From Bacilli bacterium (GTDB lineage Bacteria; Bacillota_I; Bacilli_A; ML615J-28; CAG-698), in assembly GCA_050953065.1 (NCBI GenBank), contig JBMNLZ010000003.1, positions 1 through 64,000 of the forward strand: 64,000 bases of DNA, written 5' to 3'. Shown here one piece after another: positions 2,614-48,104 of this stretch; positions within the stretch are counted from its first letter, which is position 1, and each line of letters begins with the position of its first letter. Below the pieces are notes generated by a model. It worked only from the letters and a program-made list of their open reading frames with translations, was not told the DNA's origin and made no database searches. A program made the position numbers and the translations under genes.

Positions 2614-3043
2614 TTAATCTTCTACAACAATACCCATGTTTCGAGCAGTCCCTTCAACAATCTTAGTTGCTTGTTCAAGTGTATAAGCGTTTAAATCAGG
2701 CATCTTCATTTTCGCGATTTCAGCCACCTTTTCACGTTTCAATGTTGCAACTTTTGTTTTGTTAGGGGTTGCAGAAGCTTTGCTAATACCAGCCATTTTC
2801 TTTAATAAATCAGAAGCTGGCGGAGTTTTAGTAACAAAAGTAAATGTACGGTCTTCATACACTGAAATAACTACAGGTACTACATAACCAATTTGATCTT
2901 TTGTTGCTTCATTAAATTGTAATACAAACTGTTGGATGTTTACACTTGCTGAACCTAAGGCAGGACCTACAGGTGGAGCAGGGAGTCGCTTTTCCAGCAG
3001 GGATTTGCAATTTAATAACTTTCGTAATCTTTTTTGCAGCCAC
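2614..3043 (-). CDS. rplK: 50S ribosomal protein L11 (apparent 1-nt insertion at 2981-2983)
   Basis: GTG start after AGGAGG gives [19 protein letters not shown]. One extra C then shifts the frame to [10 protein letters not shown]..., which continues into the listed [26 protein letters not shown]. Confidence 0.97.
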
Positions 3044-3069
3044 GAGACACACCTCCTTTTTGTCCGGGT

Positions 3070-3096
3070 GTGGTAATTGAGTTTTCACTCTCCCAC
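3070..3096 (-). promoter_or_regulatory. putative L1-binding RNA leader upstream of rplK
   Basis: GTGGGAGAGTGAAAACTCAATTACCAC matches the GTGGGAG..ACCAC L1-site pattern. Confidence 0.75.
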
Positions 3097-4044: not shown

Positions 4045-6876
4045 TTAATTTGTAGGCATTGTCGCTGTAGTGCCATATGCAGTTTTTAAAACTCCTGCTT
4101 CTAAATACGTAATATATGGTTTTGCTCTCCATGCACTTGTTGCATAATCTTCTTTCTTTATAATAACAAATTCATTATCACTAGAGTAATTATAAGCTCT
4201 AATTTTAGTTATATCACCTGAATTAAGTGTAACCTCATGAGTACCTACATAAAAAATCATTCCAACATCTACCAATGTACAGCTTGTAGGGATATAAAAT
4301 CCACCTGCTACAAACAAATATCCAGTTGTTGTATTTTTAAAATTATGATTTATATAAACTCTTGGAGAATTTATTTCACTAGATGATGCAGTAATTGCAG
4401 TAACCGTAGTATTTTTATATAACGTAATAGCAAAATCTCTATTAAAACTAGCTACCTGACCATTAACAGACCAATATTTAAAAGTTGCATTATCTGATTT
4501 TAATCTTACTGTTTGGTCATATTGTGCTGTACTACCACCTACAGCATAACCTTGCCCAACAAGTGTTACACTATAATTAGTTGTATTCGTTTTAGCATAT
4601 ACCGCTTTAATGATGGTATGACCTTGAATATTTGACAACGATCTTGACCAACCATTAAAAGCATAACCTGGTTTAATCAAATTCGTTAAATTCGGAGCAG
4701 TAGCATTTCCTCCCCTTGGAACATTTTCATATTTTAAAATGTCATTATTGCTATCTAAAAAGACAACATATTTAAAATTTGAATTTCTAGGGAAACAATA
4801 TGCTGTAAATTCATGATTATCAGTTAGCCTAAATTTATAAGGATGATTAAATGATACTAACTTTCCTTTATCAGCTAAAAACAAAAATTCATATCCTGAA
4901 TTAGGTGTTACAGTAAGTTTGCTTGCAGTACCATAAGCACCACTTGAAACCGTAATATTATGAGTTCCATTCATAGTCTGACAAGTTAGACTATAAGTTT
5001 TATTAGAAACTACAATTGATACATTTTGAGAAACAGAAGGCGTTACAGTTGAAGTTGCTGTAATTATAGCAGTTCCTTGATTAACTCCGGTAACTACTCC
5101 GCTACTATTTACTGTAGCAACACCAGTATTACTACTACTCCAAGTTACCCCTTGACCTACACCTGCAGGATAAACTGTAGCCGTAAGGGAAACTGTTTGC
5201 TGAGGATTAATCCCTTTAGCGCCAGTAATTGTAATTGAAGTTGCTGCTAAAGGTGTTCCAGTTGAGATAGGTCCTACAGTATTAGTCGCTGAAATTGCTG
5301 CTATTCCATAAGTATAATTTACTCCACCATAAATTGTTAAATCTTTGTGATATGTAACATTAGGTCCCACAACAGTTAACAATTCACCAGCAGCACCAGT
5401 AACACTACCTGTAGTAGTTCTATAAATCGCATATTTTCTAGCACCACTCACAGTTGACCAACTCAATTCATTAGAATTTCTAGAAAAGTTTGGAACTTGG
5501 CCTAAAGTAATTGGTGTAGTATTAGCCATTTCAGGAACTAATGCTGCGTAATTCCAAGTATTTTTTATTCCTTGAATATTTCCAGGTAATTTTCCTGCAG
5601 TTGAATTAAAAGACTTATAAGTATATATACACGTTCCTTTTACCTCAGGATGTTTAATAATATATTTTAATTGCTTTGCAGCTTCATTATCGTGAGTCCA
5701 CCCATTCGCACTAGTTGCCGCCATATAAAGTCCCATACCAGCATATAGATTGACCTTTTTATTTTTAACAACCTTAGCCCACCAATCAATAACATCAGCA
5801 AATTTACAATGACTATCTTCAAAACCCCAATAAGATTGCGGTACGATATAGTCAATCCATTCACTATCAATCCATCTTTTAGTATCTGCAAACAAATAAT
5901 AATTGCGGTGTTCTTGTCCTGACGTATTAGAGCCATTACTTTGATAAGTTCCATTAGCATCATAAGTAGCATTCATCGCACCATTATAAGTATTATTAGC
6001 AAAAACACCAGTTGGAGAAATTCCAAGTTGAACTTTTCTTCCATTATTACTATTATAAGTTCGCATTGTATTGCTTAATTCTTGAATATACAAACTTACC
6101 TGTTCTCTTCTCCAAGGGTCTCTAGTATATCCATTCGGATTATACATAGCCATTGTAGATGCATCATCTACACCAGCTATATAAAAGTAATCATCAAAAT
6201 GAACCGCATCTACATCATATTTTTGAATTACTTCCATTACAGTATTAATTAAATACGTTCTAACATTAGGAAGTCCTGGATTTAAAATTACACCGCTTGT
6301 TCCTAAAAGCAAGTTTGAAGTAGAACTAGCAGGATTAGAAGGACATGATGCATATCTAGATGCAATAGTATTTAAATCTACAGCTGAAGTTTCAACTCTA
6401 TAAGGATTCATCCAAGCATGAAATTCAATTCCTCTTCTATGGCACTCGCCAACTAACCACTCAATAGGATCATTTCCAGCCGTTGGAGTAAAACCAATAT
6501 ATGTAGATTTTATATTGTATTGTGAAGGATATAAAGCATCGTTCTTAATTCTAATATGAAATACCAAAGCATTCATATTATATTCTTGCATTTTATTTAA
6601 AACAATATTCATCGCATTTTGGAAAGTAGTCATAGAAGAACCTAAAGATACATCACCTGCAAAAGGCGAAACCCACAAACCTCTAAAATCATATCTTTGT
6701 TGCTCATAAACATCAGGAGTATAAACTTGATTAGTTGTGTTTCTATATGTAATATTAGTACCGCTTGAAGAAAGCAAAGGAACTAAGTTAAAAGCATTAA
6801 CTTCTACCTTAACATTAGTCATCATTAACACAAAGCACAGGATAATCATTAGCGATAATATTCTTTTTAATTTCAT
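4045..6876 (-). CDS. secreted GHL10 (DigH/YddW-like) glycoside hydrolase + FN3-like + 1 Big_2 + InlB-B-type repeats + C-terminal unknown domain (paralogue A)
   Basis: Signal peptide; FRGLWVS, EFHAWMNPYR, LNPG, HFDDYFY, WIDYIVPQSYW motifs; WSSSNTGVATV Big_2 motif; KPGYAFNGW repeat motif. Confidence 0.9.
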   Translation of the reverse strand: MKLKRILSLMIILCFVLMMTNVKVEVNAFNLVPLLSSSGTNITYRNTTNQVYTPDVYEQQRYDFRGLWVSPFAGDVSLGSSMTTFQNAMNIVLNKMQEYNMNALVFHIRIKNDALYPSQYNIKSTYIGFTPTAGNDPIEWLVGECHRRGIEFHAWMNPYRVETSAVDLNTIASRYASCPSNPASSTSNLLLGTSGVILNPGLPNVRTYLINTVMEVIQKYDVDAVHFDDYFYIAGVDDASTMAMYNPNGYTRDPWRREQVSLYIQELSNTMRTYNSNNGRKVQLGISPTGVFANNTYNGAMNATYDANGTYQSNGSNTSGQEHRNYYLFADTKRWIDSEWIDYIVPQSYWGFEDSHCKFADVIDWWAKVVKNKKVNLYAGMGLYMAATSANGWTHDNEAAKQLKYIIKHPEVKGTCIYTYKSFNSTAGKLPGNIQGIKNTWNYAALVPEMANTTPITLGQVPNFSRNSNELSWSTVSGARKYAIYRTTTGSVTGAAGELLTVVGPNVTYHKDLTIYGGVNYTYGIAAISATNTVGPISTGTPLAATSITITGAKGINPQQTVSLTATVYPAGVGQGVTWSSSNTGVATVNSSGVVTGVNQGTAIITATSTVTPSVSQNVSIVVSNKTYSLTCQTMNGTHNITVSSGAYGTASKLTVTPNSGYEFLFLADKGKLVSFNHPYKFRLTDNHEFTAYCFPRNSNFKYVVFLDSNNDILKYENVPRGGNATAPNLTNLIKPGYAFNGWSRSLSNIQGHTIIKAVYAKTNTTNYSVTLVGQGYAVGGSTAQYDQTVRLKSDNATFKYWSVNGQVASFNRDFAITLYKNTTVTAITASSSEINSPRVYINHNFKNTTTGYLFVAGGFYIPTSCTLVDVGMIFYVGTHEVTLNSGDITKIRAYNYSSDNEFVIIKKEDYATSAWRAKPYITYLEAGVLKTAYGTTATMPTN

Positions 6877-7030: not shown

Positions 7031-8338
7031 TTATGCAACAAAATTCTCATAAATTACTTTAATTGTTTTTTCAAAATCTCTATTATCAACGCCTACAATG
7101 ATATTTAATTCCTGTAAACCTTGAGCGATCGTTTTAATATTAATTTCATTATTTCCAATTGTTGCAAATAACTTCCCAGAAATTCCAGGTCTTTTTGCCA
7201 TATTTCTACCAACTACTGCAACTAAAGCAATTTGATCAGTTATTTGAACATCACTAACATCTTTTTCTTTCTTTATATCACTTACCAAATCGTAAATACA
7301 TTTTTCAACATCTTCACTATTAACGATAATACTAAAACTATCAATTGATGATGGAATATGTTCTACATTTACTTTATACTTTTCAAAGATTTGAAGAATT
7401 TGCCTAATGATACTTACCTTGCTACATAAGTGACTCTTTGTAATAGTAAAAGATGTAAAATTCTTTTTTCCTGCGATTCCAGTTATAATTTGCGATTCAT
7501 CATCACAATCTTGTGTAATAACAGTCCCAGAATTTGTAGGATCATTAGTATTTAAAATATTAATCGGAATATTTGATTCTTGAACTGGAAAAATCGTTTC
7601 TTCGTGCAAAACATTAGCACCCATATAAGCAAGTTCTCTTAACTCGCTATATGTAATTTGTTTGATTCTTTTTGGTTTATCAACGATTCTAGGGTCTGCC
7701 ATTAAAATGCCTGAAACATCAGTCCAGTTTTCATACATTGATGCAGTTATAGCTTTAGCAGCAAGTGAACCTGTTATATCAGAACCGCCTCTAGATAACA
7801 ACTTTATCACACCATTTGGATAAGCACCATAGAATCCAGGAATTACAATTTTACCATATTTTCTAAAATTGGCCTCTATTAGTTGAGATGTCTTCTCTTG
7901 ATCAATTAGTCCATCATATCCAAAAACAATTACATCTTTAGCATCAACAAACGTAAAACCTAGGTATTCGGCCATAATTTTGGCTGTAATGTATTCTCCG
8001 CGGCTAACTATATAATCAACAAGCACATCCTTTGTAAGGCGCTTAGCAATTTCATCAAACTCAGCTTCAACATCAAACTTTAATTTTAATTCACGTTTTA
8101 CTTCCAAATATCTTTCTTTTATCATATTAAAGATATTATCACCTGGAACTGAATACCTTGTATGGGCATGTAATAAATATAGTAAATCAGTTATTTTACT
8201 ATCATCCTTATTTCTTTTTCCTAAAGCTGAAACTACAACCAACCTTCTTCTATCATCGCCTAATACTATATCTTTCACCTTCTTAAATTGAGCAGCATTA
8301 GCAAGTGAAGACCCACCAAACTTCGCAACAAAAAACAT
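7031..8338 (-). CDS. lysC: aspartate kinase with two ACT domains
   Basis: VAKFGGSSLA, VVVSALG, SRGE, LSRGGSDITG, WTDVSG, ELAYMGANVLH. Confidence 0.95.
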   Translation of the reverse strand: MFFVAKFGGSSLANAAQFKKVKDIVLGDDRRRLVVVSALGKRNKDDSKITDLLYLLHAHTRYSVPGDNIFNMIKERYLEVKRELKLKFDVEAEFDEIAKRLTKDVLVDYIVSRGEYITAKIMAEYLGFTFVDAKDVIVFGYDGLIDQEKTSQLIEANFRKYGKIVIPGFYGAYPNGVIKLLSRGGSDITGSLAAKAITASMYENWTDVSGILMADPRIVDKPKRIKQITYSELRELAYMGANVLHEETIFPVQESNIPINILNTNDPTNSGTVITQDCDDESQIITGIAGKKNFTSFTITKSHLCSKVSIIRQILQIFEKYKVNVEHIPSSIDSFSIIVNSEDVEKCIYDLVSDIKKEKDVSDVQITDQIALVAVVGRNMAKRPGISGKLFATIGNNEINIKTIAQGLQELNIIVGVDNRDFEKTIKVIYENFVA

Positions 8339-8427
8339 TTTAATCACCTCGTTAGCCTATTATATACTGTATTTAAAATAAATACAAGTGTTTTTAATAT
8401 AAAAACACTTTCATTTTAATCATAATT

Positions 8428-8464
8428 AAAAAAATAAGGCCACTTCTAAATGAAATGGCCTTAT
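8428..8464 (-). terminator. intrinsic terminator after the giant hydrolase gene
   Basis: ataaggcca..tggccttat stem plus a 7-T tail on the minus strand. Confidence 0.9.
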
Positions 8465-8484
8465 CAAAAATAATTTTAAAATTA

Positions 8485-11400
8485 TTACGAAGTTTTTATG
8501 AATGTCTTTGTATCCCACAATGAATAACCTCTCATGCCAGTCACCTGACAATAATAACCTGTACCACCATATTGATGAATTATATAGTGATTGTCTCCAA
8601 CTTTTCCTAAATACATCATAACATGCCCACTCATTAATAGAATAGCTCCCATTCTAACATTTTCTAATAATGAATAGTTAGTGCCAATATTATAACTTGG
8701 ATATACCCTTGCATAATTACTAGCAGTTATTAAAGATTGTTGTGAAGTATTTCTTGGAAGTAAGAATCCACAAACCTTATATGCAGCCCAAATTGTTGAA
8801 GAACAGTCTCTATCAGCATTTAAGTCTCCCCAACCATATGGTTGACCTAACATCTTGAACATTTGTTTAACAACATTTCTTGTTGTATATGGTAAATATC
8901 CAACGCTAACATATTCATTGCTATCAATTGGAATAGCCACACTAGTTCCAGCAGTAACAAGTTTTCCGTTATTATTTCTTCTTGTAGGTACTCTTATCGT
9001 AGCAGAACTTGAAGTACTTGAAACTAAAGGTAATCTTACCCCCATTCTTAATTCAGTTGGAAGGCCTGTTATTTGAGTCGTTTTAATTCTTTCAGCCGTA
9101 ATTACAGCAAAATCAGTAGAATTAGCATAACTTAACATATCTGCAGCTGTACATGTTCCTACAGTTGTTGTTGGAATCCAGCCAAAATAGTTTTGACTCC
9201 TTACAAGCAACCATGTAGTACTATATTTACCATAAATAACCACTCCTTCTCCAACTTCAAGTCCTGTTTCAATATAAGATGTAGCAGTTGAAGTTGTAGG
9301 TTCATTTTTCATAAGTGCAAACGATGTAACAACAGCATATTCAGCAGTTGTAAGGCGAGTCCAACTTGAACTTTTAAAAGGTTCTTTATTAGTATAACCA
9401 AACTCACTAATTAAAGCATCGCATTGAGCAGTAGTAATTGTAGTTATTTGAGCTAACGCAGTAACACTAATTAATCTCATATTTCCTTGATTAATCATTG
9501 TAGTATTTTGTGTAGCAATTTCAGCAGGAGTTAATAAAACTTCATTAATATTTAATCCTTCATTTAATGCCTTACCTAACCAATAGAATGGATTTGTCAT
9601 TTCTTGAGTTGCAGGACTACTGTATGTTGGATTAGAACCAAATGTAATTAATTTATCATATGGTTCGGTGCCACTAACATAAATAGTAACAGTTCCTTCT
9701 ACATTAGGATCAGCAGCTAAAGTAGCTGTAATTGTAACAGTACCTGCCGCTTTAGCTAGAACTAAACCACTACTATTAACAGTTGCATAACTAGTATTAC
9801 TACTTGCCCAAGTTACAGCATAACCACCTTCAACTGATGCTTGAGTAGTAGTATATGTTGTAAGATTAGTTTGTCCAGCACTAACAACTAAAGTAGTTGG
9901 AAGTGGTCCAGCCCCATATGTTGCAACATCAGTCCATTTTGCATAATACATTGCAGCTGGAGCAACTCCTGCAGCAATACTTGTTATAGGACTTCCACTA
10001 AAGCTAGAATTATTATACCATCCTTCAAATACATATCCTTCTCTAAATGGCGCCTTCAATACTGCAGTTTGTCCTTGCAAGTAAGTTGTAATTTGATAAG
10101 TTGTTGCAGTAGATGTAGTTCCATCAGCACTCCAATATAGGGTAGGAGTTGCTAATTGTTGTCTTAGATTTAAGTAACTACCACTTCCATTTGATTGAGA
10201 TCCATAGAAATATGCATCTAGAAGGAATCCAGCACCCGATTTAACTTGCTTCATAGTTGTCGGATCAGTAGATGTAATTGATGGATAGGCAGTAGTTAAA
10301 TATAAATTTACCAAATGAATCAATACATTCTGATATTTACTCTTATAAGGTTCTGTTCCAAAGAATCCACCAGTGGCAATTGTTCCTGAAATTGAATCCC
10401 AGAAGAATTGTGAATATCCATCAGTTGCACCATAAGTTCCAGTAGATGTACAGTTATAAAGAGCAACTGGGTCAGTTTGAGCAGTACTAAATCCTGCCCA
10501 AGTTGTTGTTTGTAAAGATGTTGCAACAATTGAAGATGTTAACAAATTATTATCTTTCAAGTATTGATAAAAATCTTGCATAAAGATTTCAGGTAAATTT
10601 GAAACTCCATCCACATAATAACGTCCAGCCCAAGCACCTGATTGTATAGTACCAACAGTACCTGTTGTCCAAGTCCAAGAACCATTATTTAATGCATAAT
10701 TAATCGTATAAGTCGAAGGAGCTCCACCACTCCATTTTGCATAAAGTGTAGTTGTACTTGAAACACTCGTAACTGGCGAACCGTTAAAGCTTGCATTATC
10801 ATACCAACCTTCAAATGTAGCACTAGACTTATTAGGTGTTGGCAAACTTGTAACTGGTGCACTATAGTTATACGCAGTTTTTTCTATATATGTGCCAAAG
10901 CAACCGTTAGCATTAGAACTAATCGAATAATCCGCAGCAGTTCCAATAGCATCGCCTCTTGCTGCTAAAAATGCCCATGTTTCCCATCTAGGAGCAGATG
11001 CTTGAGTTAACGGATCATGAGTATTATTTAATATTTTTTGAAGTTCAGCAACATTATCAGTATGAGCAACAGTTATTAAATATTCAATCATCCACATCCA
11101 TTTATTTTTATAACTAGCATGATTAAAGAAATTACCTACATTTCCTGCATTTGCATAGTTTCTGCCAATATAAGCAGTTGTGCCATCATAGCCAGCATCA
11201 CCACTTTGCAATAAACTCATACGACTTAAACTAGCTCCAGCATTAGCATTATAGAATGCTGTAAAGTCATCTAGATAATCATTTACCATATCTTCTCTTG
11301 TTTCATACACCCAATAACCACCATTTAAATTATAAGTAATAGTGAAATTATCCTCTGTAAAATACGCTACAAGTGTGATATTTGAAGTTACAGGAGTATT

Positions 11401-14400
11401 AAAGTTATATGTACTTCCATTTAATCTCCACTCAACAAATGTATATCCACTCTTAACAGGATCAGTTGGTTTAGCAACTGTTGCTCCAGAAACCACAGTT
11501 GAAGTTGTATAAGTATTTCCATCTACTGTAAATGTAACTACATAAGTTGTATTTAATGTAAAATATGCAGTAAGTGTAATATTTGAAGTTACAGGAGTAT
11601 TAAAGTTATATGCACTTCCATTTAATTGCCATTCAACAAACGTATATCCAGATTTTGTTGGGTCTGCTGGTCTAGTAACCATATCTCCTGAATTTACGGT
11701 TGAAGTTGTATAAGTTGTGCCATCTACTGTAAATGTAACTGTATAAGTTACAGTTGCCTCAAAATATGCTACAAGTGTAATATTTGATGTTACTAAAGTA
11801 TTAAAGTTATAAGCAACACCATTTAATCTCCACTCAACAAATGTATATCCACTCTTTACAGGATCTGCTGGTTTAGTAACAGCAGTATTAGAATTAACAG
11901 TTACATTATTAGTTACTCCATCAACATTAAAAGTAACTACATATGTTTTATTAAAATCTCTAACTTGTTCTAAAGCAAAAGTTGAGCCAACTGTATAACC
12001 AGTATTAAATCCTAGTTGCCTATCTAAATATTTAGTAACATATAAAGCTTGTCCTTGAGATAGTGTAATACCTGTTTGCCCATTATAATAAACCCCTAGA
12101 ATTTCTCCATCAACATCTATTTTTACAGCCACTTCATTGGTTACATTTTCACCATTAAAGGCTGTACTATTAAAATTAAATGTAATAGTGTTTGCATTAG
12201 TTGATGTATTTCTAATCACGTTACCACAAGATTTATAGATTACGTCTTGGGCAGCCCAAATTGCTGCAAACTGAGAATCAGTATACGTAGTATTGCTTGA
12301 AACAGAAATATTAACAAGATCCTTAACCAAGAATAGTACCGCAGTATCACTTTCTCTAGTTAAAGTCCATCCATTCCATTCAGTTGCACCAACCCCAGCT
12401 GAAACAGAATTATAATGTTTCTTAGTATAACCATCCGGCAAAATTCCAAAGTTAATTTGTTTTGTAGCTGTATGGCTATTTAGCGTTCCTTTAATAGTCC
12501 TATAAGCAGTATCTAAACTATAAACTGATTTGTAAGCACCTGATGCTATATCAAACAAATCCTCATTTTCTCCAGTTTGATAAGCCCAAGTAAGCCCTGG
12601 ATAAGTTGGGAATGCGTAGTTTGCTGGAATATGGTTTGGTAGGGATGCAACCATATTAGCAAGTAACTCACTATCTGATAAAGCTGCTTGATATGTAACA
12701 ACATTACTATATTTATAATACACATTACTATTATATAAATATGAAACATAAGTACATGCGTTCCACTTTTGAGTAGACAATACACCACTTAAAGAAACTG
12801 CAAATTCATTATTGTTTGTTGCGATTAAACTTCTAATCTTGTTAACTCCAGGAGTTGCAATAGTTAAACCGCTTTCTAAATTACCTTGATATATTAACAT
12901 TCCCTTTTCAATTAATGTATAGTCCTCTGGCAATGAATACGCACCCACAAAAGATAAAAATCCATTTTCTATTTCAGTATCTATTATATTAGGTGAAATG
13001 CTTGCAACTGGTTCTTCTGCTACTGCTCCACTTAAAACAGCAGTTACAGTTTCATCACCATATACTGAAAAAGTATAACTCAAATCATAACTTACAATTT
13101 CTCCATTCCTCATCCAATAACTAAAAGTTGAAAAAGAATTAGCAGTAACTGTAATTGTACTATCATATGCTGCAGTTACACTTGGAACAGTTCCATTTTG
13201 TATAGTTATAGTATATATATCACTAACATTCTTAATAAAAATCGGCAAAATAATTAAGTCTTCAGTTACATTATTATATGCTTCACTCCAATGACTAAAA
13301 GTATAGCCTTGTTTTGTAGGAATAAGACTTGTAGAAGGCGCACTAACACTAGCACCACTACTACAAATTTCTAAACTTAAAATATTTCTATTTTGATCCA
13401 TAAATAACACATAGTGCATATTATTTGGAACAAAATAAGCTTTATAATTTACATCACTATTAACTTTAAAAGCATATGTTGTTTGAAAACTGATAACTTT
13501 ATTATTTTCAGCTAAGAATAAATATCTATAGCCAGAATTTGGACTAACTAAAATTGAATTTGAACTTCCATAAGTAGTATCATAATTACTCTTAGCAATC
13601 GTTCCGTAACTACTATTATTTACAGAAAGATTAATATTATAATATGTAACTCCAGCTAGTCCATTAACAGTTATTTCGTGAGTATCAAATTTATCAGGAT
13701 TTGAAACTGACGTTGCAGTAATAGTTACTGTCCCAACACCTACTGCACTAACTAAACCGTTTGAAGACACAGTAGCAATTAAAGGATTACTACTTTGCCA
13801 GTTTACACTTGTATTAGTCGCATTACTAGGTAATACTTCTACAGATAACTGTAAAGTATTATTGATAGTCATGCTTGTATTTCCAGATATAGTTACACTA
13901 GTAACAGCAACTGAAACTATTTCAATTTGTTTTGAACCATAAACTGATCCATTTAAAGTTGAAGTCGCTGTAATTGTTGCAAGCCCAGTTGCAACTGCAG
14001 TTACTTTACCAGTTTGATCAACTGTTGCAATATTAGAATTACTTGATGACCAATTTACATCTTGGCATGTATAACTTGGTAAAGCAGTTGCTGTAAAATT
14101 AGTTGTGCTTCCAATTTCTAAGTAATTTTCACCAGTAACAGAAATTGAGTTTGGAGCCATTGTTGTATCAATAACTGTAACACTATGAGTATCTACAATA
14201 CTTCCATCAGCAGCTGATGCCGCAGAAATATTAACAATCCCACCAGAAACTCCAGTTACTTGGCCTAATTGATTGACTGTGGCAATACTTGTATTAGCAC
14301 TACTCCAGACAACTGCTTGATTAGCATTCACAGGACTAACACTAGCCGATAAAGTAATAGTAGAATTTTTATTCACTTGGTTTGCACCAGTTATTGAAAC

Positions 14401-17400
14401 CGAAACTGGTGGTGCATAATTTACTGCTATTTCTTTTGTTCCATAAATATTTTCATCTAAAGCTGATTTAGCAGTAATAATAACATTACCAACATTAACT
14501 CCAGTTACAACTCCACTTGAAGAAACTGTAGCAATACTTGTATTACTTGAATACCAATTTACATCTTGACTAGCTGAACTAGGTAACGCTGTAGCAGTCA
14601 AAGTAGTATTACCACCTTTTACAACACTCAATGCACCAGAAACAGAAATAGATGTAGGTACGCCACCAGGCACGGTAAATGTCTTACTATCCATCCTATT
14701 AGTATTAACACTAGAAACACAATTAATAGTAGCAACGCCATACCCTACTGCATTAATTAACCCTTGAGGGGTAACAGTTAAAACATTGGTATTACTTGAA
14801 TACCATTGAACATCATTAATCGCACCAGTCGAAGGTGATACAATAGATGTTAATTGTCTTGTTGTATTATAGTCAATTGTATTAGATGTAGCACCAATTG
14901 CTACTGATGTTACATCAGTAGAACCACTTGGCACATTATTATAAATAATTGAAAAATTATCAAAATATAAAGTTCCACTTATCTTTGGTAATCCACCAAT
15001 AGCAAGAACTCTTATAGCAAAAGTAATTTGACTAGCTGACACAGTTTCAGGAAAAGCAAATTCAACATATCTCCACCCTGTCCAATTTACTGTAGCTGGA
15101 GTAGGTTCAGCGTAAAGAACTGTACCATTTACGTTTAATTGTGAGCGTAAATTAGCACCTTTGCCATCACCATAACACCAAAAACCAAGACCTATTGCTC
15201 CCGGTGTTAATCCAAAATAAGCATTATCATCTATATATCTTCCAACATAAACACCATCAGTGCCAGTAGCATTAAGTAAATTATATGTAACTTTTAAAGA
15301 TTTGCTACCAAATTTTACATAACTTAAATCATTATTTATACTTGCAGTTCCAGACCCATTATTTAGATTTTGAGTTTGCCATACGTTGCTTTCAAAAGGT
15401 TCTAATTTCATAAAATTATTTTGTGAAATTGTAACTTGCATCGTATCATATAGTCCATTTTCTACAGTAGTAGCTGTTATATTAACAACTCCTGGTCTAA
15501 GAGGTACCAACCTACCAGTACTTTCAATAATTGCAATTGTAGTGTCACTAACACTCCAATTATATGTATAAGGATCTCCAGAAAGTGATGAAGCAATATA
15601 TGAATTACTAAAACCAACTTCTGCAGTAGATTCCCCCGAAATTGTAATCGCTTCATTAGAAATTGATAAAATCTTCGTATCAAAAATTGAAGTATCAGCG
15701 GTGCTTCTTGCAGTTATTGTAACTTCTCCTGTTGTTGTAGAATTGGCAGTTACTTGACCAGCTGAGTTTACTGTAGCTAAAGATGTATTGCTAGATGTCC
15801 AAGAAACTGTTTGAATTGCTCCTGCTGGAGAAACAGTAGCACTTAAATTCACTGTTTGTCCAAGTGCCACAGCATTCGGTCCATTAATCGTAACCGAAAC
15901 TGGTGAAGGTCTAGTAACACTAATTACGTGTGTGTCATATATGTTAGTATGAGTAGCACTTCTTGCAGTTATTGTAACTGTACCAGTAGAAACACCAGTC
16001 ACTTTACCAAAAGCATCAACTGTTGCAACACCTGTATTATTACTACTCCAATTAACTGCTTGAGAAGCCCCTGTTGGTGAAACAACAGCAGTTAATTGTG
16101 TTGTATTAGCAATATATAAACTACTTGCTCCGCTAATAGTAACAGCAGTTGCAGGAACAAAAGGAGATTGATATGTTAAAGTGCTTTCAGTATTAGTTCC
16201 TGAAATTGCTCTAATTCCATATCTATAACTTATTCCTTGTTGAGCAGTTGTATCTATATAACTATTAGTTGAAGAACCTACTACTGTTATTAATTCATCA
16301 ATAGTTGAATTAATTGTAGTCCCAGTTGTCCTATAAATTGCATATCTTTTAGCACCAGGTTTTAGGCTCCAAGTTAAATAACTACCATCAGCATAAAAAT
16401 CACTTACTTCTCCGAGATTAACTGCTGTCATAGTTCTTGTTTCTGGAATTAACGATTTATAATTCCAAATATTTTTAAGTTGAGCTATTTTTTGAGAAGT
16501 AAAACTTGTATCACCATCCCTAGCATTTTTTAAATATATATATTTATAAATAAATGTTCCTCTAACATGCGCAAACTGTGTAAGATATCTAGTTTGCATC
16601 TCTGCTTCATAAACATTGGTTCCCCAGGAATAATCCGTTCTTCCAATTCCCATTCCTGAATACAGGTTTACTTTTTTACGATCAACTACTTTTGCCCACC
16701 ATTCCATCAAATCGGCAAATTGTCCTGTAGTATGAGTAAATCCCCAATAAGATTGTGGAGTAATATAGTCAATCCATTCATTATCAACCCATTTTTTTGT
16801 ATCCGCACAAAGATAATATCCATAATGCTCTTGACATCCTGAGTTATTTGACCCATATACTGAATATGTCCCATTTGAATCATATGTCCCGCCAATTGCT
16901 TGGGCTCTACTTGAAACAGTTCTATATACACCTGTTGGTGAAATTCCAAGTTGAACATATCTATTATTATTAGCATTATAAGTTCTAATCGATGTACTTA
17001 AAGAGGAAATAAAAGCATCAATATCAGCACGCTTATCAGCATCTGATCTACCTGTATTTGCTCCACTTGCGTAGAAATAATCATCAAAATGAATCGCATC
17101 AATATCATAATTTTGAATAAGTTCCATACAAGTATTTACTAAAAAATTTCTAACAATCGCTTTACTTGGATCTAATATCAAAAGATTATTATCTGAAGTT
17201 GTTAATAAGTTTGCAGAATTACTTGCAGGGTTAGCTGTCGGATAAGAATAATTATATAATGGTTCTGCTGAAGGATTTCCTACTCTATAAGGATTAAGCC
17301 AAGCATGAAACTCATAACCTTCTTCATGGCATCTATTTACCGCCCATGCTATTGGATCAAATGTATTAAAGTCAATACCATTTGTCCTCCAAGATTTAGG

Positions 17401-17754
17401 GTTTAATGCTGATGGATAAAAAGCATCATTATGTGTTCTAACATGGAACACCATCGTATTTAAATTATAATAATCCATATCATCAAGCAACTCTTCAAAA
17501 TTATCTCTAAAAGTTGCCTCACTTGCAAATGAAATGTCACCAACAAAAGCTGATACCCAAACAGCTCTCATATCAAACTTTTGTTTTTCATAGACATTTG
17601 GAATTTGAACAATAGAACTTGTACCTTTGTAGTATACTGGATTTCCTCCGATATATAAACCAGTCAAAGTATAAGCACCTACTGTCTGAAGCCCAAAATA
17701 CACTGCAAAAACTAATACTATTAAAGACATAAAGATTTTTCTAATTTTTTTCAT
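8485..17754 (-). CDS. giant secreted bifunctional hydrolase: GHL10 + FN3-like + 9 Big_2 + CBM-like + InlB-B repeats + C-terminal SH3-associated NlpC/P60 peptidase (paralogue B, ~3089 aa)
   Basis: N-terminal MRAVWVS/EFHAWLNPYR/HFDDYFY; repeated WSSSNxxxATV; PxKSGYTFVEW repeats; C-terminal LGQPYGWG..RDCSS..LPRNTSQQ..GHVMMYLG..IIH (Cys-His-His). Confidence 0.92.
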   Translation of the reverse strand: MKKIRKIFMSLIVLVFAVYFGLQTVGAYTLTGLYIGGNPVYYKGTSSIVQIPNVYEKQKFDMRAVWVSAFVGDISFASEATFRDNFEELLDDMDYYNLNTMVFHVRTHNDAFYPSALNPKSWRTNGIDFNTFDPIAWAVNRCHEEGYEFHAWLNPYRVGNPSAEPLYNYSYPTANPASNSANLLTTSDNNLLILDPSKAIVRNFLVNTCMELIQNYDIDAIHFDDYFYASGANTGRSDADKRADIDAFISSLSTSIRTYNANNNRYVQLGISPTGVYRTVSSRAQAIGGTYDSNGTYSVYGSNNSGCQEHYGYYLCADTKKWVDNEWIDYITPQSYWGFTHTTGQFADLMEWWAKVVDRKKVNLYSGMGIGRTDYSWGTNVYEAEMQTRYLTQFAHVRGTFIYKYIYLKNARDGDTSFTSQKIAQLKNIWNYKSLIPETRTMTAVNLGEVSDFYADGSYLTWSLKPGAKRYAIYRTTGTTINSTIDELITVVGSSTNSYIDTTAQQGISYRYGIRAISGTNTESTLTYQSPFVPATAVTISGASSLYIANTTQLTAVVSPTGASQAVNWSSNNTGVATVDAFGKVTGVSTGTVTITARSATHTNIYDTHVISVTRPSPVSVTINGPNAVALGQTVNLSATVSPAGAIQTVSWTSSNTSLATVNSAGQVTANSTTTGEVTITARSTADTSIFDTKILSISNEAITISGESTAEVGFSNSYIASSLSGDPYTYNWSVSDTTIAIIESTGRLVPLRPGVVNITATTVENGLYDTMQVTISQNNFMKLEPFESNVWQTQNLNNGSGTASINNDLSYVKFGSKSLKVTYNLLNATGTDGVYVGRYIDDNAYFGLTPGAIGLGFWCYGDGKGANLRSQLNVNGTVLYAEPTPATVNWTGWRYVEFAFPETVSASQITFAIRVLAIGGLPKISGTLYFDNFSIIYNNVPSGSTDVTSVAIGATSNTIDYNTTRQLTSIVSPSTGAINDVQWYSSNTNVLTVTPQGLINAVGYGVATINCVSSVNTNRMDSKTFTVPGGVPTSISVSGALSVVKGGNTTLTATALPSSASQDVNWYSSNTSIATVSSSGVVTGVNVGNVIITAKSALDENIYGTKEIAVNYAPPVSVSITGANQVNKNSTITLSASVSPVNANQAVVWSSANTSIATVNQLGQVTGVSGGIVNISAASAADGSIVDTHSVTVIDTTMAPNSISVTGENYLEIGSTTNFTATALPSYTCQDVNWSSSNSNIATVDQTGKVTAVATGLATITATSTLNGSVYGSKQIEIVSVAVTSVTISGNTSMTINNTLQLSVEVLPSNATNTSVNWQSSNPLIATVSSNGLVSAVGVGTVTITATSVSNPDKFDTHEITVNGLAGVTYYNINLSVNNSSYGTIAKSNYDTTYGSSNSILVSPNSGYRYLFLAENNKVISFQTTYAFKVNSDVNYKAYFVPNNMHYVLFMDQNRNILSLEICSSGASVSAPSTSLIPTKQGYTFSHWSEAYNNVTEDLIILPIFIKNVSDIYTITIQNGTVPSVTAAYDSTITVTANSFSTFSYWMRNGEIVSYDLSYTFSVYGDETVTAVLSGAVAEEPVASISPNIIDTEIENGFLSFVGAYSLPEDYTLIEKGMLIYQGNLESGLTIATPGVNKIRSLIATNNNEFAVSLSGVLSTQKWNACTYVSYLYNSNVYYKYSNVVTYQAALSDSELLANMVASLPNHIPANYAFPTYPGLTWAYQTGENEDLFDIASGAYKSVYSLDTAYRTIKGTLNSHTATKQINFGILPDGYTKKHYNSVSAGVGATEWNGWTLTRESDTAVLFLVKDLVNISVSSNTTYTDSQFAAIWAAQDVIYKSCGNVIRNTSTNANTITFNFNSTAFNGENVTNEVAVKIDVDGEILGVYYNGQTGITLSQGQALYVTKYLDRQLGFNTGYTVGSTFALEQVRDFNKTYVVTFNVDGVTNNVTVNSNTAVTKPADPVKSGYTFVEWRLNGVAYNFNTLVTSNITLVAYFEATVTYTVTFTVDGTTYTTSTVNSGDMVTRPADPTKSGYTFVEWQLNGSAYNFNTPVTSNITLTAYFTLNTTYVVTFTVDGNTYTTSTVVSGATVAKPTDPVKSGYTFVEWRLNGSTYNFNTPVTSNITLVAYFTEDNFTITYNLNGGYWVYETREDMVNDYLDDFTAFYNANAGASLSRMSLLQSGDAGYDGTTAYIGRNYANAGNVGNFFNHASYKNKWMWMIEYLITVAHTDNVAELQKILNNTHDPLTQASAPRWETWAFLAARGDAIGTAADYSISSNANGCFGTYIEKTAYNYSAPVTSLPTPNKSSATFEGWYDNASFNGSPVTSVSSTTTLYAKWSGGAPSTYTINYALNNGSWTWTTGTVGTIQSGAWAGRYYVDGVSNLPEIFMQDFYQYLKDNNLLTSSIVATSLQTTTWAGFSTAQTDPVALYNCTSTGTYGATDGYSQFFWDSISGTIATGGFFGTEPYKSKYQNVLIHLVNLYLTTAYPSITSTDPTTMKQVKSGAGFLLDAYFYGSQSNGSGSYLNLRQQLATPTLYWSADGTTSTATTYQITTYLQGQTAVLKAPFREGYVFEGWYNNSSFSGSPITSIAAGVAPAAMYYAKWTDVATYGAGPLPTTLVVSAGQTNLTTYTTTQASVEGGYAVTWASSNTSYATVNSSGLVLAKAAGTVTITATLAADPNVEGTVTIYVSGTEPYDKLITFGSNPTYSSPATQEMTNPFYWLGKALNEGLNINEVLLTPAEIATQNTTMINQGNMRLISVTALAQITTITTAQCDALISEFGYTNKEPFKSSSWTRLTTAEYAVVTSFALMKNEPTTSTATSYIETGLEVGEGVVIYGKYSTTWLLVRSQNYFGWIPTTTVGTCTAADMLSYANSTDFAVITAERIKTTQITGLPTELRMGVRLPLVSSTSSSATIRVPTRRNNNGKLVTAGTSVAIPIDSNEYVSVGYLPYTTRNVVKQMFKMLGQPYGWGDLNADRDCSSTIWAAYKVCGFLLPRNTSQQSLITASNYARVYPSYNIGTNYSLLENVRMGAILLMSGHVMMYLGKVGDNHYIIHQYGGTGYYCQVTGMRGYSLWDTKTFIKTS
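11359..11946. repeat. three tandem ~201-bp intragenic repeats (Listeria-Bacteroides/InlB B-repeat units)
   Basis: Units begin at ~11359, 11560 and 11761 and share long identical blocks, e.g. atatttgaagttacaggagtattaaagttatatg and tttaatctccactcaacaaatgtatatccactc. Confidence 0.9.
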
Positions 17755-17799
17755 AATGACGCCTTCTTTCAATTTGTATTTATTATTTTTCGCATAACA

Positions 17800-17834: not shown

Positions 17835-20800
17835 TTATCTTAATTCTTTTAATACTAGACTTGTTGCTGTACTAAAATCACTTTCATTTCCAAAACCAAG
17901 CGAAGCTCTGTCAAGATATTTAGCAGTCCACAATCCTTCGTTTGGAGCAAGAGTCACAGTTGAAGTTGTTCCAGTAAGTATTTCTTTAATTGTACCACTA
18001 CTTGTTACTACTACTCCAAGTCTAACTGGTGAACTAGATGAATCATTAGTTGCATTAGCTAAAGTGAAGTTAACACTATTTGCCCCCTTATTAACAATAT
18101 AACTTCCAGCTGAATGCCAATCAATATTACCATCTTGTGCCATAATGCTCGTAATATTAATAGCACCACTTCCTTGAATTTCAACTACTTTGTTAATTAA
18201 GAACAATACTTGAGTGCCTTTAGTTAAAGTCCAACCTTTCCAAGCACTTGAAGTTACATATTGGGAAGCATCATGATAGAACTTGCCAACCTCACCTGTT
18301 GCAAGCATTCCAAAGTTAATTGTCTTAGTTGCAGTAGCATCACCTAGTGTTCCAACAATTGTTCTATTTGCAACAGCAAAACTACATCCAGTATATGTAC
18401 CAGTTGCTATATTAAATAAACTAGTATCCTGACCTGCTTGATAACTCCACACTATTCCATAAGTATCTGGGAAAGTATAATTTCCAGTTATATGACTAGG
18501 AAGTGTAGTCATTGCAGCATTTAGTTTTTCTAAATTTGTCAATTCTGATTTATACGTAGCTAAAGCACTATATATTTGCTTAATCATATTGTTTTCAACA
18601 TAACTAACAAATGTACAAGCTTTCCACATCGCTTTATCATCAACATCATTAATTATAATTGCAAATTCATTATTGTTTGAAAACTTAGTTGCTCTATATT
18701 TTAAAACTCCTGCTGTATCAAATGTTAAATTAGTAATTGTATTTCCTTGATAAAGTAATACTCCAGCCTCAACAAACGAAGCAGTGGCAGGTAAATAATA
18801 ACTACCAACAGCAACAAATTGATCATCATTTAAGTTTAAAACACTCTTATTTATAGTAGCTATTGCATCTTTATAAATCGTAGTATCATTAGCTACTAAT
18901 TTTTCATTCCCATAAACTGTAAACGAATAAGATTTATCATAACTTGCAATCTCACCATTCCTTGTCCAATAACTAAAATTATTTGATGTTGCATGAACAG
19001 TTACGATTGAATCAAATTTAGCAATACCAGTATATGTTCCACCTACAACTTCCACTGTATAAGTATCAGTTTTATTAACAGTATAATTAGGTGTAACAAT
19101 TAAGTTCTGATTAACATTGTTAAATGTTCTACTCCAACCAGAGAATGAGTATCCAGGTTTTTGTGGGATATTTGTTGGAGAAGTTGCATTTGTTCCTGCT
19201 TTTACATACTGAACATCGATTAACTCTTGGTTTTTATCCATGAACAATACATAATATCTATCCATTGGAACAAAATATGCTTCATACGTAGTATCTTCTG
19301 CAATTCTAAAATTATATCTAGTACTATAACTAACAATCTTTCCGTTTTCAGTTAAGAATATAAATCTATAACCTGGATATGGATTTGAGATGATAGTATT
19401 TCCTTCTGCATAAATATTATTCCCGTGAGCTAAGAAAACCTCGCCATATCCACTATTAGCAGTTAATACTAACTTATTATAACTAGTATTTTGATTAGGA
19501 ACTATCGTAACATGATATGAACTTTTAACTGTAGGATCAGCAATTGAAGTTGCTGTAATCGGAACAGTACCAAGCGACACCCCATAAACATTTCCATTTG
19601 TGTCAACTGTTGCAATTTTTTCATCGCCACTTGACCAAGAAACTTTTTTATTAAACGCATCATTTGGTAAAATGTTAGTTGAAAGTTTTTTACTAGTTGC
19701 AATAGTAATTGTCGATTCACCACTAATCGTAATTGATTTTGGTAAAATATTAACCACTTCTACTATCTTAGTTCCAACAACTCCATTATCAATTGTTGAT
19801 CTTGCAATAATTACTACCTCACCAATACTAACTCCTAAGATATTGCCAGTTGTAGCATTTGGCAAAGCTTTATCATGATTTGATGTGCTCCATAAAACTT
19901 CCTGATTAGCACCACTTGGTAAAACAGTTGCCGTATATTTTGCAAAATTTCCAATTTCAATACGGTTAGGTCCAACCAAAGTAATAGCATAAGGTTTAGA
20001 AATATCATCATAAACTACTACTAAAAATTCGGTAGCTATTCCATTAGCATTTGAAGTAGCAACTATATTTACAAGTCCTTTAGAAACTCCACTAACAACA
20101 CCGTTTTGGTTAACTGTTGCTATTGCATTATCACTACTACTCCAAGTTACTTTTTGAGATGCAATACTCGGAATAACACTAGCAACTAAAACAATAGATT
20201 TTCCAATTTGGACTTCATTATATCCACTTATATTTACCATTTGTGGATGAATATTATATACAGTGATAGCTTTCGTTCCAAAGACTGAATTGTTATCAAC
20301 TGAAAAAGCAGTTATTATTGCAACTCCTTCAGCTATACCTCTAACCAGTCCACTTTGATTTACTGTAGCAATCGTAGCATCACTACTTTCCCAAACAACA
20401 CTTTGATCAACTAATGTAGGATAAACAGTAGCGTATAATTGAATATTAACACCTACTTGTGTATCGTTACTTCCAGAAACAATAACGTTTGTTGCTTTTG
20501 TTTTTGTAATAGTTATTGTTAAAGTTCCATAAACACTTTCATCAACTGTAGATTTAGCTGATATTACAACACTGCCTTCCTTAACTCCAGTAACAACACC
20601 ATTATTACTAACAGTTGCTTTTGAAGTATCACTAGAATACCAATTCACTGTATGAGTAGAATTATTAGGGCTAACAGTAGTATTAAGAGCAATCGTTCTA
20701 CCAATTTCTACTGTATTTTCTCCACGAACAACAATACTAGTTGGCGCAGTTGCAATTACTGAAAGTGTAATTGATCCAAATTTAGAACCATCAGTATTAG

Positions 20801-25427: not shown

Positions 25428-25540
25428 AGTTAATCCTTTCATAAAAAGAACATTCTCTATTGTTATTATAGCATATTTCAAGTATTAAAAAAAGCAAAAT
25501 AAATAGTTTTTAAAATGGCTTAAGATTTGTCTTAAGACCA

Positions 25541-47700: not shown

Positions 47701-48068
47701 TTTAAAGCGTTATTTACACCATCATTTAAAACATACTGAATTTGATATGTTGTATCAACAACTACAGGATCATTTTCTTGCCATAAAGCATACAAAGAAA
47801 CATTTGATTTAGTCCCTACTGGGATTAAAGTAATCGGATCTCCTGTAAAAGCTGCATTATCAAACCACCCCTCAAAAGTAAATCCTTCTTTTGTAGGAGC
47901 TGAAATTGTAAGCGGCAAGTCGCTCGCCTTAAAACTAGCTACATTACTAGCATGGTTAACACCATCATCCAAATTGTATCTGATTGTATAAGTAGGTTCT
48001 GTTTTTTTACAACCAACAAGTACAATTCCAAAAACTAATACTGAAAATAAAGTTAAAATTTTTTTCAT
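44715..48068 (-). CDS. lipoprotein N-acetylmuramoyl-L-alanine amidase (Amidase_2) with 6 InlB-B repeats and 2 Big_2 domains
   Basis: LVGC lipobox; repeats Y.L..G..P.K.G..F.GWY..LYAK; catalytic motifs YITVHDT, SWHY, AYHAGDG, GNRNSIGIE, VKPHNFFSGKNCP (His/His/Cys Zn ligands). Confidence 0.92.
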   Translation of the reverse strand: MKKILTLFSVLVFGIVLVGCKKTEPTYTIRYNLDDGVNHASNVASFKASDLPLTISAPTKEGFTFEGWFDNAAFTGDPITLIPVGTKSNVSLYALWQENDPVVVDTTYQIQYVLNDGVNNALNVSSYKTTDATIILKPATRDGFAFAGWYTNASFTGDKVVSIVAGSTGNKTLYAKWEIVYNVVYHLDNGDNASCNPATFSESDLDIYLEDAVKQGYTFDGWYTNEGFTGDKVTHIKSIGDKVLYAKYTENKYTLNYELNQGTNDPANLTSVGYSQFPYALAPATKDGKKFAGWYDNASFNGSRIDVLEVPSTTSITLYAKFEDLYTITYTLNDGVNDGSNLTEFSESDLPLSLAKAAKLGCVFDGWYTEAGFTNKVTAITTLANVNLYAKFSAASLGAGEYSISYIMNGGDIKYDTVEQLADEFLRDFYNYLGLTSDFQAFKAVGGDYTKGAWYVEATFQKMFSPNQKLPDNSNFFINQVEYNSKWLNFFEVLDVEITKVNPAQTFWGGYFVARIRMGELFNKTRWQTSNVIKYFNGIPVLKYTNTGSEISLTSPIKPGFVFGGWYDNADFTGEPMVALPAGSTGNKILYAKWGDAVLPTEITISNPVSELEGYDEYQLNVNIAPNEAFDKRMIFESSNENVATIDQTGKINTKKLGTTTITITSVADNKVKATMTLTVVNVDRVEIRTVGHGTIKVGETIQLQATVYPTTANAAWSSEDPSIATVNSTGLVTGVAEGAATIKVASSADGEIKMTVEVVVLPNYEEADALLEYLISINEGNVLYKNAKVTGYQFVYYADIYGSVSKYWFGTNTITERIAPLTNDNRPGTKMTSVEYITVHDTASSASTADAFMHANYVYNGGGGTSWHYSAGDTGIYHQIPDDEVAYHAGDGSLTYQLTDTGIPASGPNPTITISADGYWEFNGQKSTLAAPTNGGAILPTSKITPAGIHTVIGENGNYYIGRTWYSSSFGYIGNGGGNRNSIGIETMVNQGSDLYLTWQKTAKLIAQLLLTNNIDPSRVKPHNFFSGKNCPQTMRDNNLLNNFYELVEAEYYIAKNYSDYTITFTSNNPELVSNTGRVIGIPRYSTVVSYTIKVEKGAYSKSVTLYSIIPGQWNW

Positions 48069-48104
48069 GTTTTTCTCCTTTTTAAAATTTATCCCATCTC
48101 TTCC

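Follow-up and report, generated by a model that had tools for sequence, protein, structure and literature searches.

Several described enzymes of the bacterial cell wall come close to the two ends of the protein treated here. Cwp19 of Clostridioides difficile has been reported as a peptidoglycan lytic transglycosylase (PMC6016235), and 13 conserved putative active-site residues have been named in it, namely Trp36, Gln77, Trp127, Arg132, Asp195, Asp196, Tyr197, Ser250, Gln295, Tyr297, Gly328, Phe367 and Ser368 (PMC5765458). DigH (YddW) of E. coli is described as a glycosyl hydrolase specific for denuded peptidoglycan glycans that acts after the amidases (PMC12288456). DvLysin and the YkfC enzymes are given as gamma-D-Glu-A2pm (A2pm, diaminopimelic acid) amidases in a source that also names CwlT and discusses its NlpC/P60 domain (PMC4600125). 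In the present study, we analysed 64,000 nucleotides from a Bacilli bacterium of the GTDB lineage Bacillota_I; Bacilli_A; ML615J-28; CAG-698 (assembly GCA_050953065.1, contig JBMNLZ010000003.1, positions 1 to 64,000, forward strand), a stretch referred to below as the window, and in it one gene for a giant protein with a GHL10 glycosidase-type head at one end and an NlpC/P60 peptidase head at the other. We consider it probable that this is an exported enzyme with which a wall-less digester Bacilli dismantles, as food, the peptidoglycan of other living or dead bacteria.

The gene is a single unbroken frame on the minus strand (8485..17772), of 3095 amino acids when counted from a TTG. The ATG at 17754 was taken as the likely start, giving 3089 amino acids, because a Shine-Dalgarno-like GAAGG site lies upstream of it and a typical signal peptide begins there. 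The protein has one hydrophobic segment only (residues 4-27) and is, by prediction, exported via a Sec-type signal; no lipobox cysteine (the first cysteine is residue 142), no LPxTG-like motif and no second hydrophobic segment that could form a C-terminal transmembrane helix was found in it. The Pfam scan of the whole protein gave GHL10, Big_2 (eight stretches), Flg_new (five stretches) and NLPC_P60, and a scan of 28 overlapping pieces of 220 amino acids was used to place the repeats; about 2300 amino acids of Big_2, InlB-B-type and unassigned domains separate the two heads. An earlier note, made from the letters alone, had described one uninterrupted frame of about 3090 amino acids, a glycosidase at its N-terminus, an SH3-associated NlpC/P60 module at its C-terminus, and neither lipobox, LPxTG motif nor C-terminal transmembrane segment, and the Pfam and PDB matches and the motif and hydrophobicity scans agree with it on each of these. 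It had also placed more than 2000 amino acids of Ig-like, CBM-like and InlB-B domains between the heads; the length and the Ig-like and InlB-B types were found again, and the label CBM-like, given to residues ~770-945, was not confirmed, as that region had no Pfam, NCBIfam or PDB match.

The N-terminal head matches the GHL10 family of Pfam with 119.7 bits (cut-off 27.9) over residues 62-369, and with 119.6 bits in the genome scan. Its best solved match is the GHL10 domain of Cwp19 (5oq2, E 4.3e-42, residues 59-405), and from this homology the head is predicted to be a (beta/alpha)8 TIM-barrel. By pairwise alignment, 10 of the 13 Cwp19 active-site residues are identical in the giant's head, including the Asp-Asp-Tyr of the FDDY motif. 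Four other GHL10 domains of the host, among them that of a 2548-aa neighbour, share 61-64% identity with the head, and the GHL10 motifs are conserved across the paralogues of the genome. At the position of Gln77, histidine stands in seven of the ten own-genome GHL10 domains aligned and glutamine is kept in two. The paralogues split at this position into a Cwp19-like Gln77 type (proteins of 440 and 654 amino acids, the gene of the latter lying two genes from nagA) and a His type, of which five members, the giant included, share an insertion of about 25 amino acids; the two groups may differ in substrate preference.

The C-terminal head is equally recognisable. NLPC_P60 matches residues 2970-3061 with 34.3 bits (cut-off 23), and the last 389 residues match DvLysin (3m1u) at E 2.7e-18. 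With a profile of 18 close homologues, the match to 3m1u reaches E 7.3e-27 over chain positions 118-385, that is residues 148-415, which take in SH3b1, SH3b2 and NlpC/P60 by the domain limits given in PMC4600125; PnpA (6sqx, E 3.7e-12) and the YkfC enzymes 3pvq, 3npf and 3h41 follow among the later profile matches. The Pfam family SH3_6 stayed below its cut-off before the peptidase (18.1 vs 27 bits), and two putative SH3b domains directly before the NlpC/P60 domain are well supported by the 3m1u alignment. The predicted triad consists of Cys2984 (8803-8805), His3044 (8623-8625) and His3060 (8575-8577), all invariant in an alignment of 51 sequences, as is the Asp next to Cys2984, and corresponds to the Cys of RDCSS at 8803-8805, the GH and the IIH that the earlier note had picked out. 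The DvLysin substrate-site motifs are all present, as YGWG, DRDCSS (RDCS), PRNT (PRN, with Asn3002 at 8749-8751) and SGH (GH); the Pfam c-clip model had no match in the giant protein.

What this head cuts may depend on one residue. In DvLysin, the site that takes the lactoyl group of N-acetylmuramic acid (MurNAc) is reported to consist of Ala211 and Asn351 (Xu et al., PMC4600125). According to the same source, recycling enzymes that act on stem peptides only have Tyr and Asp at these positions, which bind the free L-Ala amine, and the A211Y change in DvLysin strongly lowers activity on peptidoglycan, tracheal cytotoxin (TCT) and MurNAc-tetrapeptide, with activity on the free tetrapeptide remaining (PMC4600125). 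In the giant, the pairwise alignment and the profile alignment alike put Tyr2856 at the Ala211 position, with no gap between two Trp residues that serve as anchors, so that the small residue of DvLysin-like lysins is absent; elsewhere this position holds Tyr in the three YkfC structures, Thr in PnpA and Ala in DvLysin itself. The position of Asn351 is Asn (of PRN), as in DvLysin, and the recycling-type Asp is not there. Read from these alignments, the peptidase head would have the genotype of A211Y DvLysin, a recycling-type Tyr together with a lysin-type Asn. This pair is not exceptional: over 193 aligned homologue domains the commonest state at the two positions is Y/N (136), followed by C/N (23, the state of the SLH-bearing and GH3-fused homologues), Y/D (9), T/N (5), V/N (4) and S/N (4), with 12 other or gapped.

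The same residue bears on whether the protein is a lysin weapon against living neighbours, used in predation or competition, with both heads acting on intact walls and the stalk reaching or holding the prey. PnpA, a homologue of the peptidase, is reported as secreted and cleaving the peptidoglycan of competitors, giant surface proteins of the host with BspA-type leucine-rich repeats (LRR) and Flg_new domains could be adhesins, and a wall-less producer would be immune to its own enzymes. We nevertheless regard a weapon as rather unlikely, since Tyr2856 speaks against efficient action on glycan-linked peptides, the proven lysins have a small residue there (Ala in DvLysin, Thr in PnpA), and the complete catabolic pathway described below fits feeding, though killing stays compatible with it. 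The earlier note had proposed a tethered two-enzyme molecule cutting both glycan and peptide of the same polymer. Homology to peptidoglycan hydrolases at both ends agrees with the first part of this; the same polymer is unproven, and with Tyr2856 at the Ala211 position the substrates of the peptidase may be peptides that have first been released from the glycan.

The genome that encodes this protein (1.55 Mb in three contigs, 93.9% complete) had no match to a penicillin-binding protein (PBP) transpeptidase, to FtsW/RodA (SEDS) or to MraY, and its best match to MurA was 46.5 bits against a cut-off of 392.7. Two candidates for residual wall synthesis were rejected: a weak "MurG" match is a UDP-N-acetylglucosamine (UDP-GlcNAc) 2-epimerase, and the sole Mur-ligase-like open reading frame (ORF) has the middle and C-terminal domains only. 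The host therefore appears to lack peptidoglycan synthesis, from which we infer that the enzyme cannot be an autolysin and that its target is the wall of other bacteria. Autolysis or remodelling of the own wall, in the manner of Cwp19 or CwlT, is what the two nearest characterised relatives usually do, as far as the sources describe them (PMC6016235, PMC4600125), and it is contradicted by a genome without PBP, SEDS, MraY, MurA and MurG, so that we find it barely conceivable here. Among 61 genomes of the order, PBPs are present in 39 (16/36 of the own family, 23/24 of the sister family and 0/2 of the own genus), and AnmK, the kinase for anhydro-MurNAc, is present in 18 of the 22 PBP-less genomes, which suggests repeated loss of the wall with the use of wall sugars retained. 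The PBP absences are scattered over many genera of one family. The stretch is carried by digester, sludge and wastewater runs from 12 studies.

In the same genome, the genes for using the wall sugars MurNAc, anhydro-MurNAc and GlcNAc are present. MurQ was matched with 355.9 bits (cut-off 302) and NagA with 341.5 bits (cut-off 225.65). The gene for MurQ is clustered with those for AnmK, a GH3 enzyme, a NamZ exo-muramidase, a solute-binding protein fused to Big_2, a GNAT protein and a NagB-like protein; by its gene content the MurQ-AnmK cluster would be a wall-sugar catabolic operon in a wall-less genome. The host also encodes many further hydrolases. There are ten GHL10 loci, a Big_2 + CHAP protein and a second Big_2 + NlpC/P60 protein (P0124), and Amidase_2 occurs in eight ORFs of 670-1209 amino acids plus one fragment; no Amidase_3 was found in the host genome. 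One of the amidases is encoded in the window at 44715-48122 (-), a lipoprotein of 1135 amino acids with six Flg_new, two Big_2 and a C-terminal Amidase_2 domain (MurNAc-L-Ala amidase). Twenty further large ORFs carry BspA-type LRR, NAGPA, Metallophos, Peptidase_S8 or C39-like heads on similar stalks. Most stalked proteins of the host start with a lipobox, and the GHL10 proteins instead have a start of the signal-peptidase-I type. Host surface proteins of 1363-2825 amino acids combine BspA-type leucine-rich repeats with Flg_new and are candidate adhesins; another five stalked proteins have a NAGPA phosphodiester-glycosidase domain at the C-terminus, with linkages of wall polymers as a possible target.

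A further line of evidence ties the GHL10 family to the use of anhydro-MurNAc. In 61 relatives, GHL10 was found in 55 genomes and AnmK in 51, all 51 having both and four GHL10 only; the six genomes without GHL10 were also without AnmK. The class-wide sample comprised 201 genomes, in which 40 had both genes, four AnmK only, 28 GHL10 only and 129 neither, so that GHL10 occurs in 40/44 AnmK-positive vs 28/157 AnmK-negative genomes, figures that overstate independence because of the kinship among genomes. Outside the own order, AnmK lies by its coordinates within 5 kb of GHL10 in 16 of 24 AnmK-positive genomes, in five families. Three such loci, picked for proximity, were inspected: all had AnmK followed by a GHL10 gene of about 404 amino acids without signal peptide and a beta-lactamase-fold gene last, in two, genes for an RpiR/SIS regulator, a GH4 enzyme and a secreted double-GHL10 protein were present as well, in the order RpiR/SIS-AnmK-GH4-GHL10-double GHL10-beta-lactamase-fold gene, and a Big_2-Amidase_2 protein was encoded in one. 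One of the secreted double-GHL10 proteins of these AnmK operons has a first domain that shares 40% identity with the head of the giant (E 4e-86). Double-GHL10 proteins in other families of the class measure 1404-1462 amino acids, and one frame of 1979 amino acids has three GHL10 matches. Judged by co-occurrence and gene neighbourhood with AnmK, GHL10 would thus be tied to peptidoglycan turnover.

Taken together, these results lead us to favour the digestion of foreign walls, in the following form. Surface proteins with Amidase_2 would act first and strip the peptides from MurNAc, after which the two heads of the giant would process both amidase products, the denuded glycan and the free peptide. 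The GHL10 head would cut the foreign glycan strands, possibly leaving 1,6-anhydro-MurNAc ends for AnmK and MurQ, and the NlpC/P60 head would cut the L-Ala-gamma-D-Glu|diamino-acid bond in the stem peptides, with the Ig-like and InlB-B-type chain of about 2300 amino acids as a spacer or binding stalk between them. The products would be imported and burned through NamZ, NagZ, AnmK, MurQ, NagA and NagB. Having no wall, the producer would be immune to its own enzymes. The amidase-first order is our preferred one because of Tyr2856 and because of the specificity reported for DigH on denuded glycans (PMC12288456).

Several observations weigh against this scheme and must be set beside it. In the head, three of the 13 Cwp19 residues are changed (Gln77 to His, Phe367 to Tyr and Ser368 to Lys). 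AnmK is missing from 28 of the 68 GHL10-positive genomes of the class sample. In the own order GHL10 and AnmK lie tens of kb apart, the GHL10 genes of the host being scattered and about 27 kb from anmK. DogH, a GHL10 enzyme of Deinococcus, is reported to be active on starch, so that the substrates of the family are not uniform (PMC9967864). At the other end, the Y/N state, the commonest of all, appears to include some CWB2-bearing homologues (P0220, P0232 and P0300), so that by this comparison Tyr may be compatible with work on intact walls and may not exclude it. Because the genome is 94% complete, the predicted absence of peptidoglycan synthesis in the host is well founded without being certain. 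Eight places of the gene are matched, with 0-5 differences, by contigs of an RNA library (X16), a weak sign of expression, as these contigs may stem from library DNA. Finally, the fusion comes from one species only, and selection for linking the two heads is therefore unproven.

Some of these points would also follow if the two heads had unrelated targets, with GHL10 acting on a glycan other than peptidoglycan (an exopolysaccharide, an alpha-glucan or a wall-associated polymer) and NlpC/P60 acting separately on peptides or a gamma-glutamyl substrate, the whole being a general scaffold for polymer foraging. The starch activity of DogH, the His and Lys in place of Gln77 and Ser368, the GHL10-positive genomes without AnmK and the stalked NAGPA, Metallophos, Peptidase_S8 and C39-like heads of the genome could all be read in this way. 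Yet the best solved match of the head is a peptidoglycan lytic transglycosylase, the head resembles a GHL10 domain inside an AnmK operon and is fused to a peptidase of peptidoglycan type, and GHL10 and AnmK are linked by both presence/absence and neighbourhood; unrelated targets are thus unlikely in our judgement, though to be taken seriously.

For feeding on dead cells by a wall-less bacterium, there is a precedent in Acholeplasma, which was reported to be foremost in assimilating dead E. coli cells labelled with 13C (PMC4628116). In a limited literature set, no description of peptidoglycan catabolism or of hydrolase arsenals in wall-less bacteria was found; a paper on Peloplasma speaks of necromass in general terms only, and a study of peptidoglycan-fed enrichments names no Mollicutes among its dominant operational taxonomic units. 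A wider proposal, possible but in our opinion doubtful, is that the lack of a wall serves as immunity: the host would deploy an arsenal of more than 20 stalked wall hydrolases, with the giant as a processive disassembly line in which amidases act first and both products are finished on one tether, feeding NamZ/NagZ/AnmK/MurQ, and the loss of the wall would be adaptive and not only a matter of genome decay.

The combination of the two heads is rare. In a whole-length search, PF02638 and PF00877 occurred together in one of the 120 large proteins listed, which was the query's own cluster. When the C-terminal 390 residues were compared with proteins of 1698-5406 amino acids, the only match among 6105 candidates was the giant itself, and GHL10 was found in none of 40 shorter proteins that matched. 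For the peptidase module, 2106 homologues came out of an exhaustive HMMER search over 1.84 billion representatives, and the best 150 of them (76-1405 amino acids) were considered; the 39 of at least 563 amino acids all had NLPC_P60 and none had GHL10. The partners in these 39 were Big_2, aBig_2 and Flg_new and the wall-binding SLH, CWB2, choline-binding and PASTA domains, and the second enzymes were GH3 (P0275, GH3+SH3_6+NlpC/P60) and Peptidase_M15 with YkuD (P0218). Among related genomes, the module occurs in 20 of 60, always in frames of 515-901 amino acids, and it was not found in the only other genome of the genus, which is 86% complete. One of the rarity searches works by shared words, and these searches show that the fusion is rare and not that it is absent elsewhere. 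The architecture had been unfamiliar to the earlier note, and the pair of GHL10 and NlpC/P60 was indeed found in no other protein. As to its origin, P0124 of the same genome is a lipoprotein of 1200 amino acids with six Big_2 and NlpC/P60, 64% identical to the giant across the last 442 residues of P0124, beginning inside the last Big_2. The simplest history would be the addition of a "Big_2 + peptidase" cassette to a stalk protein with a GHL10 head.

A rare fusion could also be an assembly chimera or a recent, possibly non-functional accident, and its presence in one species only would be in line with that. The assembly has three contigs, and the one with the gene is 570 kb long. In another sample (run X3), a contig of 6295 bases covers 8300-11407 with 0 differences, linking the peptidase to the downstream gene on one side and to 1.7 kb of the stalk on the other; more X3 contigs cover what is left of the gene, with gaps at 11407-11583 and 15846-16187. 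Runs X4 and X5, from two other studies, hold near-identical pieces of both gene ends, and P0003, from an independent assembly, is an 87% identical fragment that runs colinearly with residues 378-2483 and has no gaps. Tandem repetition of the DNA is confined to the Flg_new array, with a period of 201 bp and just 79% matching (window 11356-11880). In addition, the frame stays open for 9.3 kb with both catalytic sites preserved and a terminator after the stop codon. The whole gene is not, however, spanned by any one contig from another run. From this evidence an assembly chimera is unlikely, and chimera and accident together are very improbable. Joints seen at 11413-11618 in contigs of other runs (skips of 178, a step back of 201) point to strain differences in repeat number in the Flg_new array or to repeats collapsed in short-read contigs.

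The features are collected in the table below. In the stalk, the Fn3-like assignment comes from weak matches at residues ~440-530 (3mpc, Fn3-like, E 0.014; a pectate lyase N-terminal domain, E 0.003; PelI, 18 bits). Residues ~770-945 are kept in the independent homologue P0003 at 87% identity. Residues ~1578-1937 had no Pfam, NCBIfam or PDB match, and their atlas scores were below 0.8; the atlas search of residues 2135-2606 returned Flg_new clusters only (score 0.88). Sequence searches of the PDB with residues 770-960, 1575-1940 and 2058-2562 gave InlB B-repeats only, and the NCBIfam scan of the giant protein gave no useful name.

Coordinates of the giant gene, its predicted domains and related features (window positions unless stated otherwise)
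Feature	Residues	Position	Strand	Remarks
Whole gene, 3089-aa exported protein (predicted)		8485..17754	-	Stop codon 8485-8487
Putative signal peptide, MKKIRK + hydrophobic core + VGA|Y	~1-27	17674..17754	-	Signal-peptidase-I type; probable cleavage site
GHL10 (PF02638) head	~55-405	16540..17592	-	Pfam 119.7 bits; 5oq2 match, residues 59-405
FDDY motif	223-226	17077-17088	-	
Fn3-like beta domain	~440-530	16165..16437	-	Weak matches
Three Big_2 Ig-like domains	~535-768	15451..16152	-	Pfam pieces
Domain without family	~770-945	14920..15447	-	Earlier "CBM-like"
Five Big_2 domains	~947-1355	13690..14916	-	Pfam pieces
About three divergent InlB B-repeat-like domains	~1375-1575	13030..13632	-	Flg_new_2 E 5.7e-6, 0.0015; Flg_new E 5.7e-4
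Region without family	~1578-1937	11944..13023	-	
Three tandem Flg_new (InlB B-type) repeats	~1938-2130	11365..11943	-	
Two ~140-190-aa segments without family, each then Flg_new	~2135-2606	9937..11352	-	Flg_new 2276-2340, 2540-2606
Last Big_2 domain	~2619-2690	9685..9900	-	Start of cassette common to paralogue P0124
C-terminal peptidase cassette	2701-3089	8488..9654	-	Conserved N-terminal segment (MTNPFYW), SH3b1, SH3b2, NlpC/P60
Tyr2856, SH3b1 distal loop	2856	9187..9189	-	Aligned to DvLysin Ala211 (S3 lactoyl-site determinant)
NlpC/P60 catalytic domain		8530..8847	-	Cys2984, His3044, His3060, Asn3002
Intrinsic-terminator-like hairpin, 14-bp stem then T run		8433..8465	-	20 nt past stop
Wall-sugar catabolic cluster		~380.8-393.3 kb of host contig C3		Also Big_2/aBig_2 protein, alpha/beta hydrolase, unknown 239-aa gene

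Two more GHL10-headed exported proteins flank the giant gene. The neighbour at 17835-25481 (-) has 2548 amino acids, with a GHL10 head and 15 Big_2 stretches, and that at 4045-6876 (-) has 943 amino acids, with a GHL10 head, Big_2 and Flg_new_2; an aspartokinase gene (7031-8347) sits between the latter and the giant gene. Elsewhere in the window, a protein of 1385 amino acids with a signal peptide (55137-59294, -) and one of 441 amino acids (60978-62303, -) had no Pfam family at E 1e-5.

The bacterial wall is a large pool of carbon and nitrogen in digesters, guts and sediments, and its anaerobic degraders and their routes are poorly known. The gene described here offers a concrete and testable enzyme for anaerobic wall degradation, from an organism that would be unharmed by it. 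In addition, independent genomic evidence connects the little-studied GHL10 family with peptidoglycan turnover, and the peptidase head lets the Ala/Tyr switch of specificity known from DvLysin be studied in a natural variant. Should the wider proposal hold, repeated wall loss in small-genome Bacilli would be tied to a wall-eating lifestyle. Both heads may be useful for sludge hydrolysis or as lytic enzymes.

Compared with the known systems, the giant's head is like Cwp19 in the equivalents of DDY, Trp36, Trp127, Arg132, Ser250, Gln295, Tyr297 and Gly328. Cwp19 (PDB 5oq2 and 5oq3), however, is an S-layer protein of about 700 amino acids with CWB2 repeats that autolyses its own wall, whereas the giant belongs to a wall-less host and has His for Gln77, Lys for Ser368 and an insertion common to four paralogues. 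DigH, which we take to be a member of GHL10 (PF02638 matches the E. coli control genome), resembles it by description only, in that a specificity for denuded glycans fits the amidase-first model, and differs as a periplasmic divisome enzyme acting on the cell's own septum. The AnmK-GH4-GHL10 loci are unlike the giant's setting, as they contain neither an NlpC/P60 fusion nor a protein of 3000 amino acids. At the other end, DvLysin, YkfC and PnpA share with the giant the SH3b1-SH3b2-NlpC/P60 layout, the Cys-His-His triad and the YGWG/RDCS/PRN/GH motifs, but they are stand-alone enzymes of 300-500 amino acids, and the giant's module ends a chain of 3089. In having glycan-cutting and peptide-cutting modules in one polypeptide the giant is like the hydrolases of CwlT type; CwlT, whose other half is a muramidase and which has a role in conjugation, differs in that the giant has a GHL10 glycosidase, is about ten times larger and comes from a wall-less producer. 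Two-enzyme wall hydrolases are thus a known kind, and both domains of the giant come from known families; what is new is the pairing of GHL10 with NlpC/P60, the size of the protein, and a producer that would combine the lack of a wall with an arsenal of wall hydrolases.

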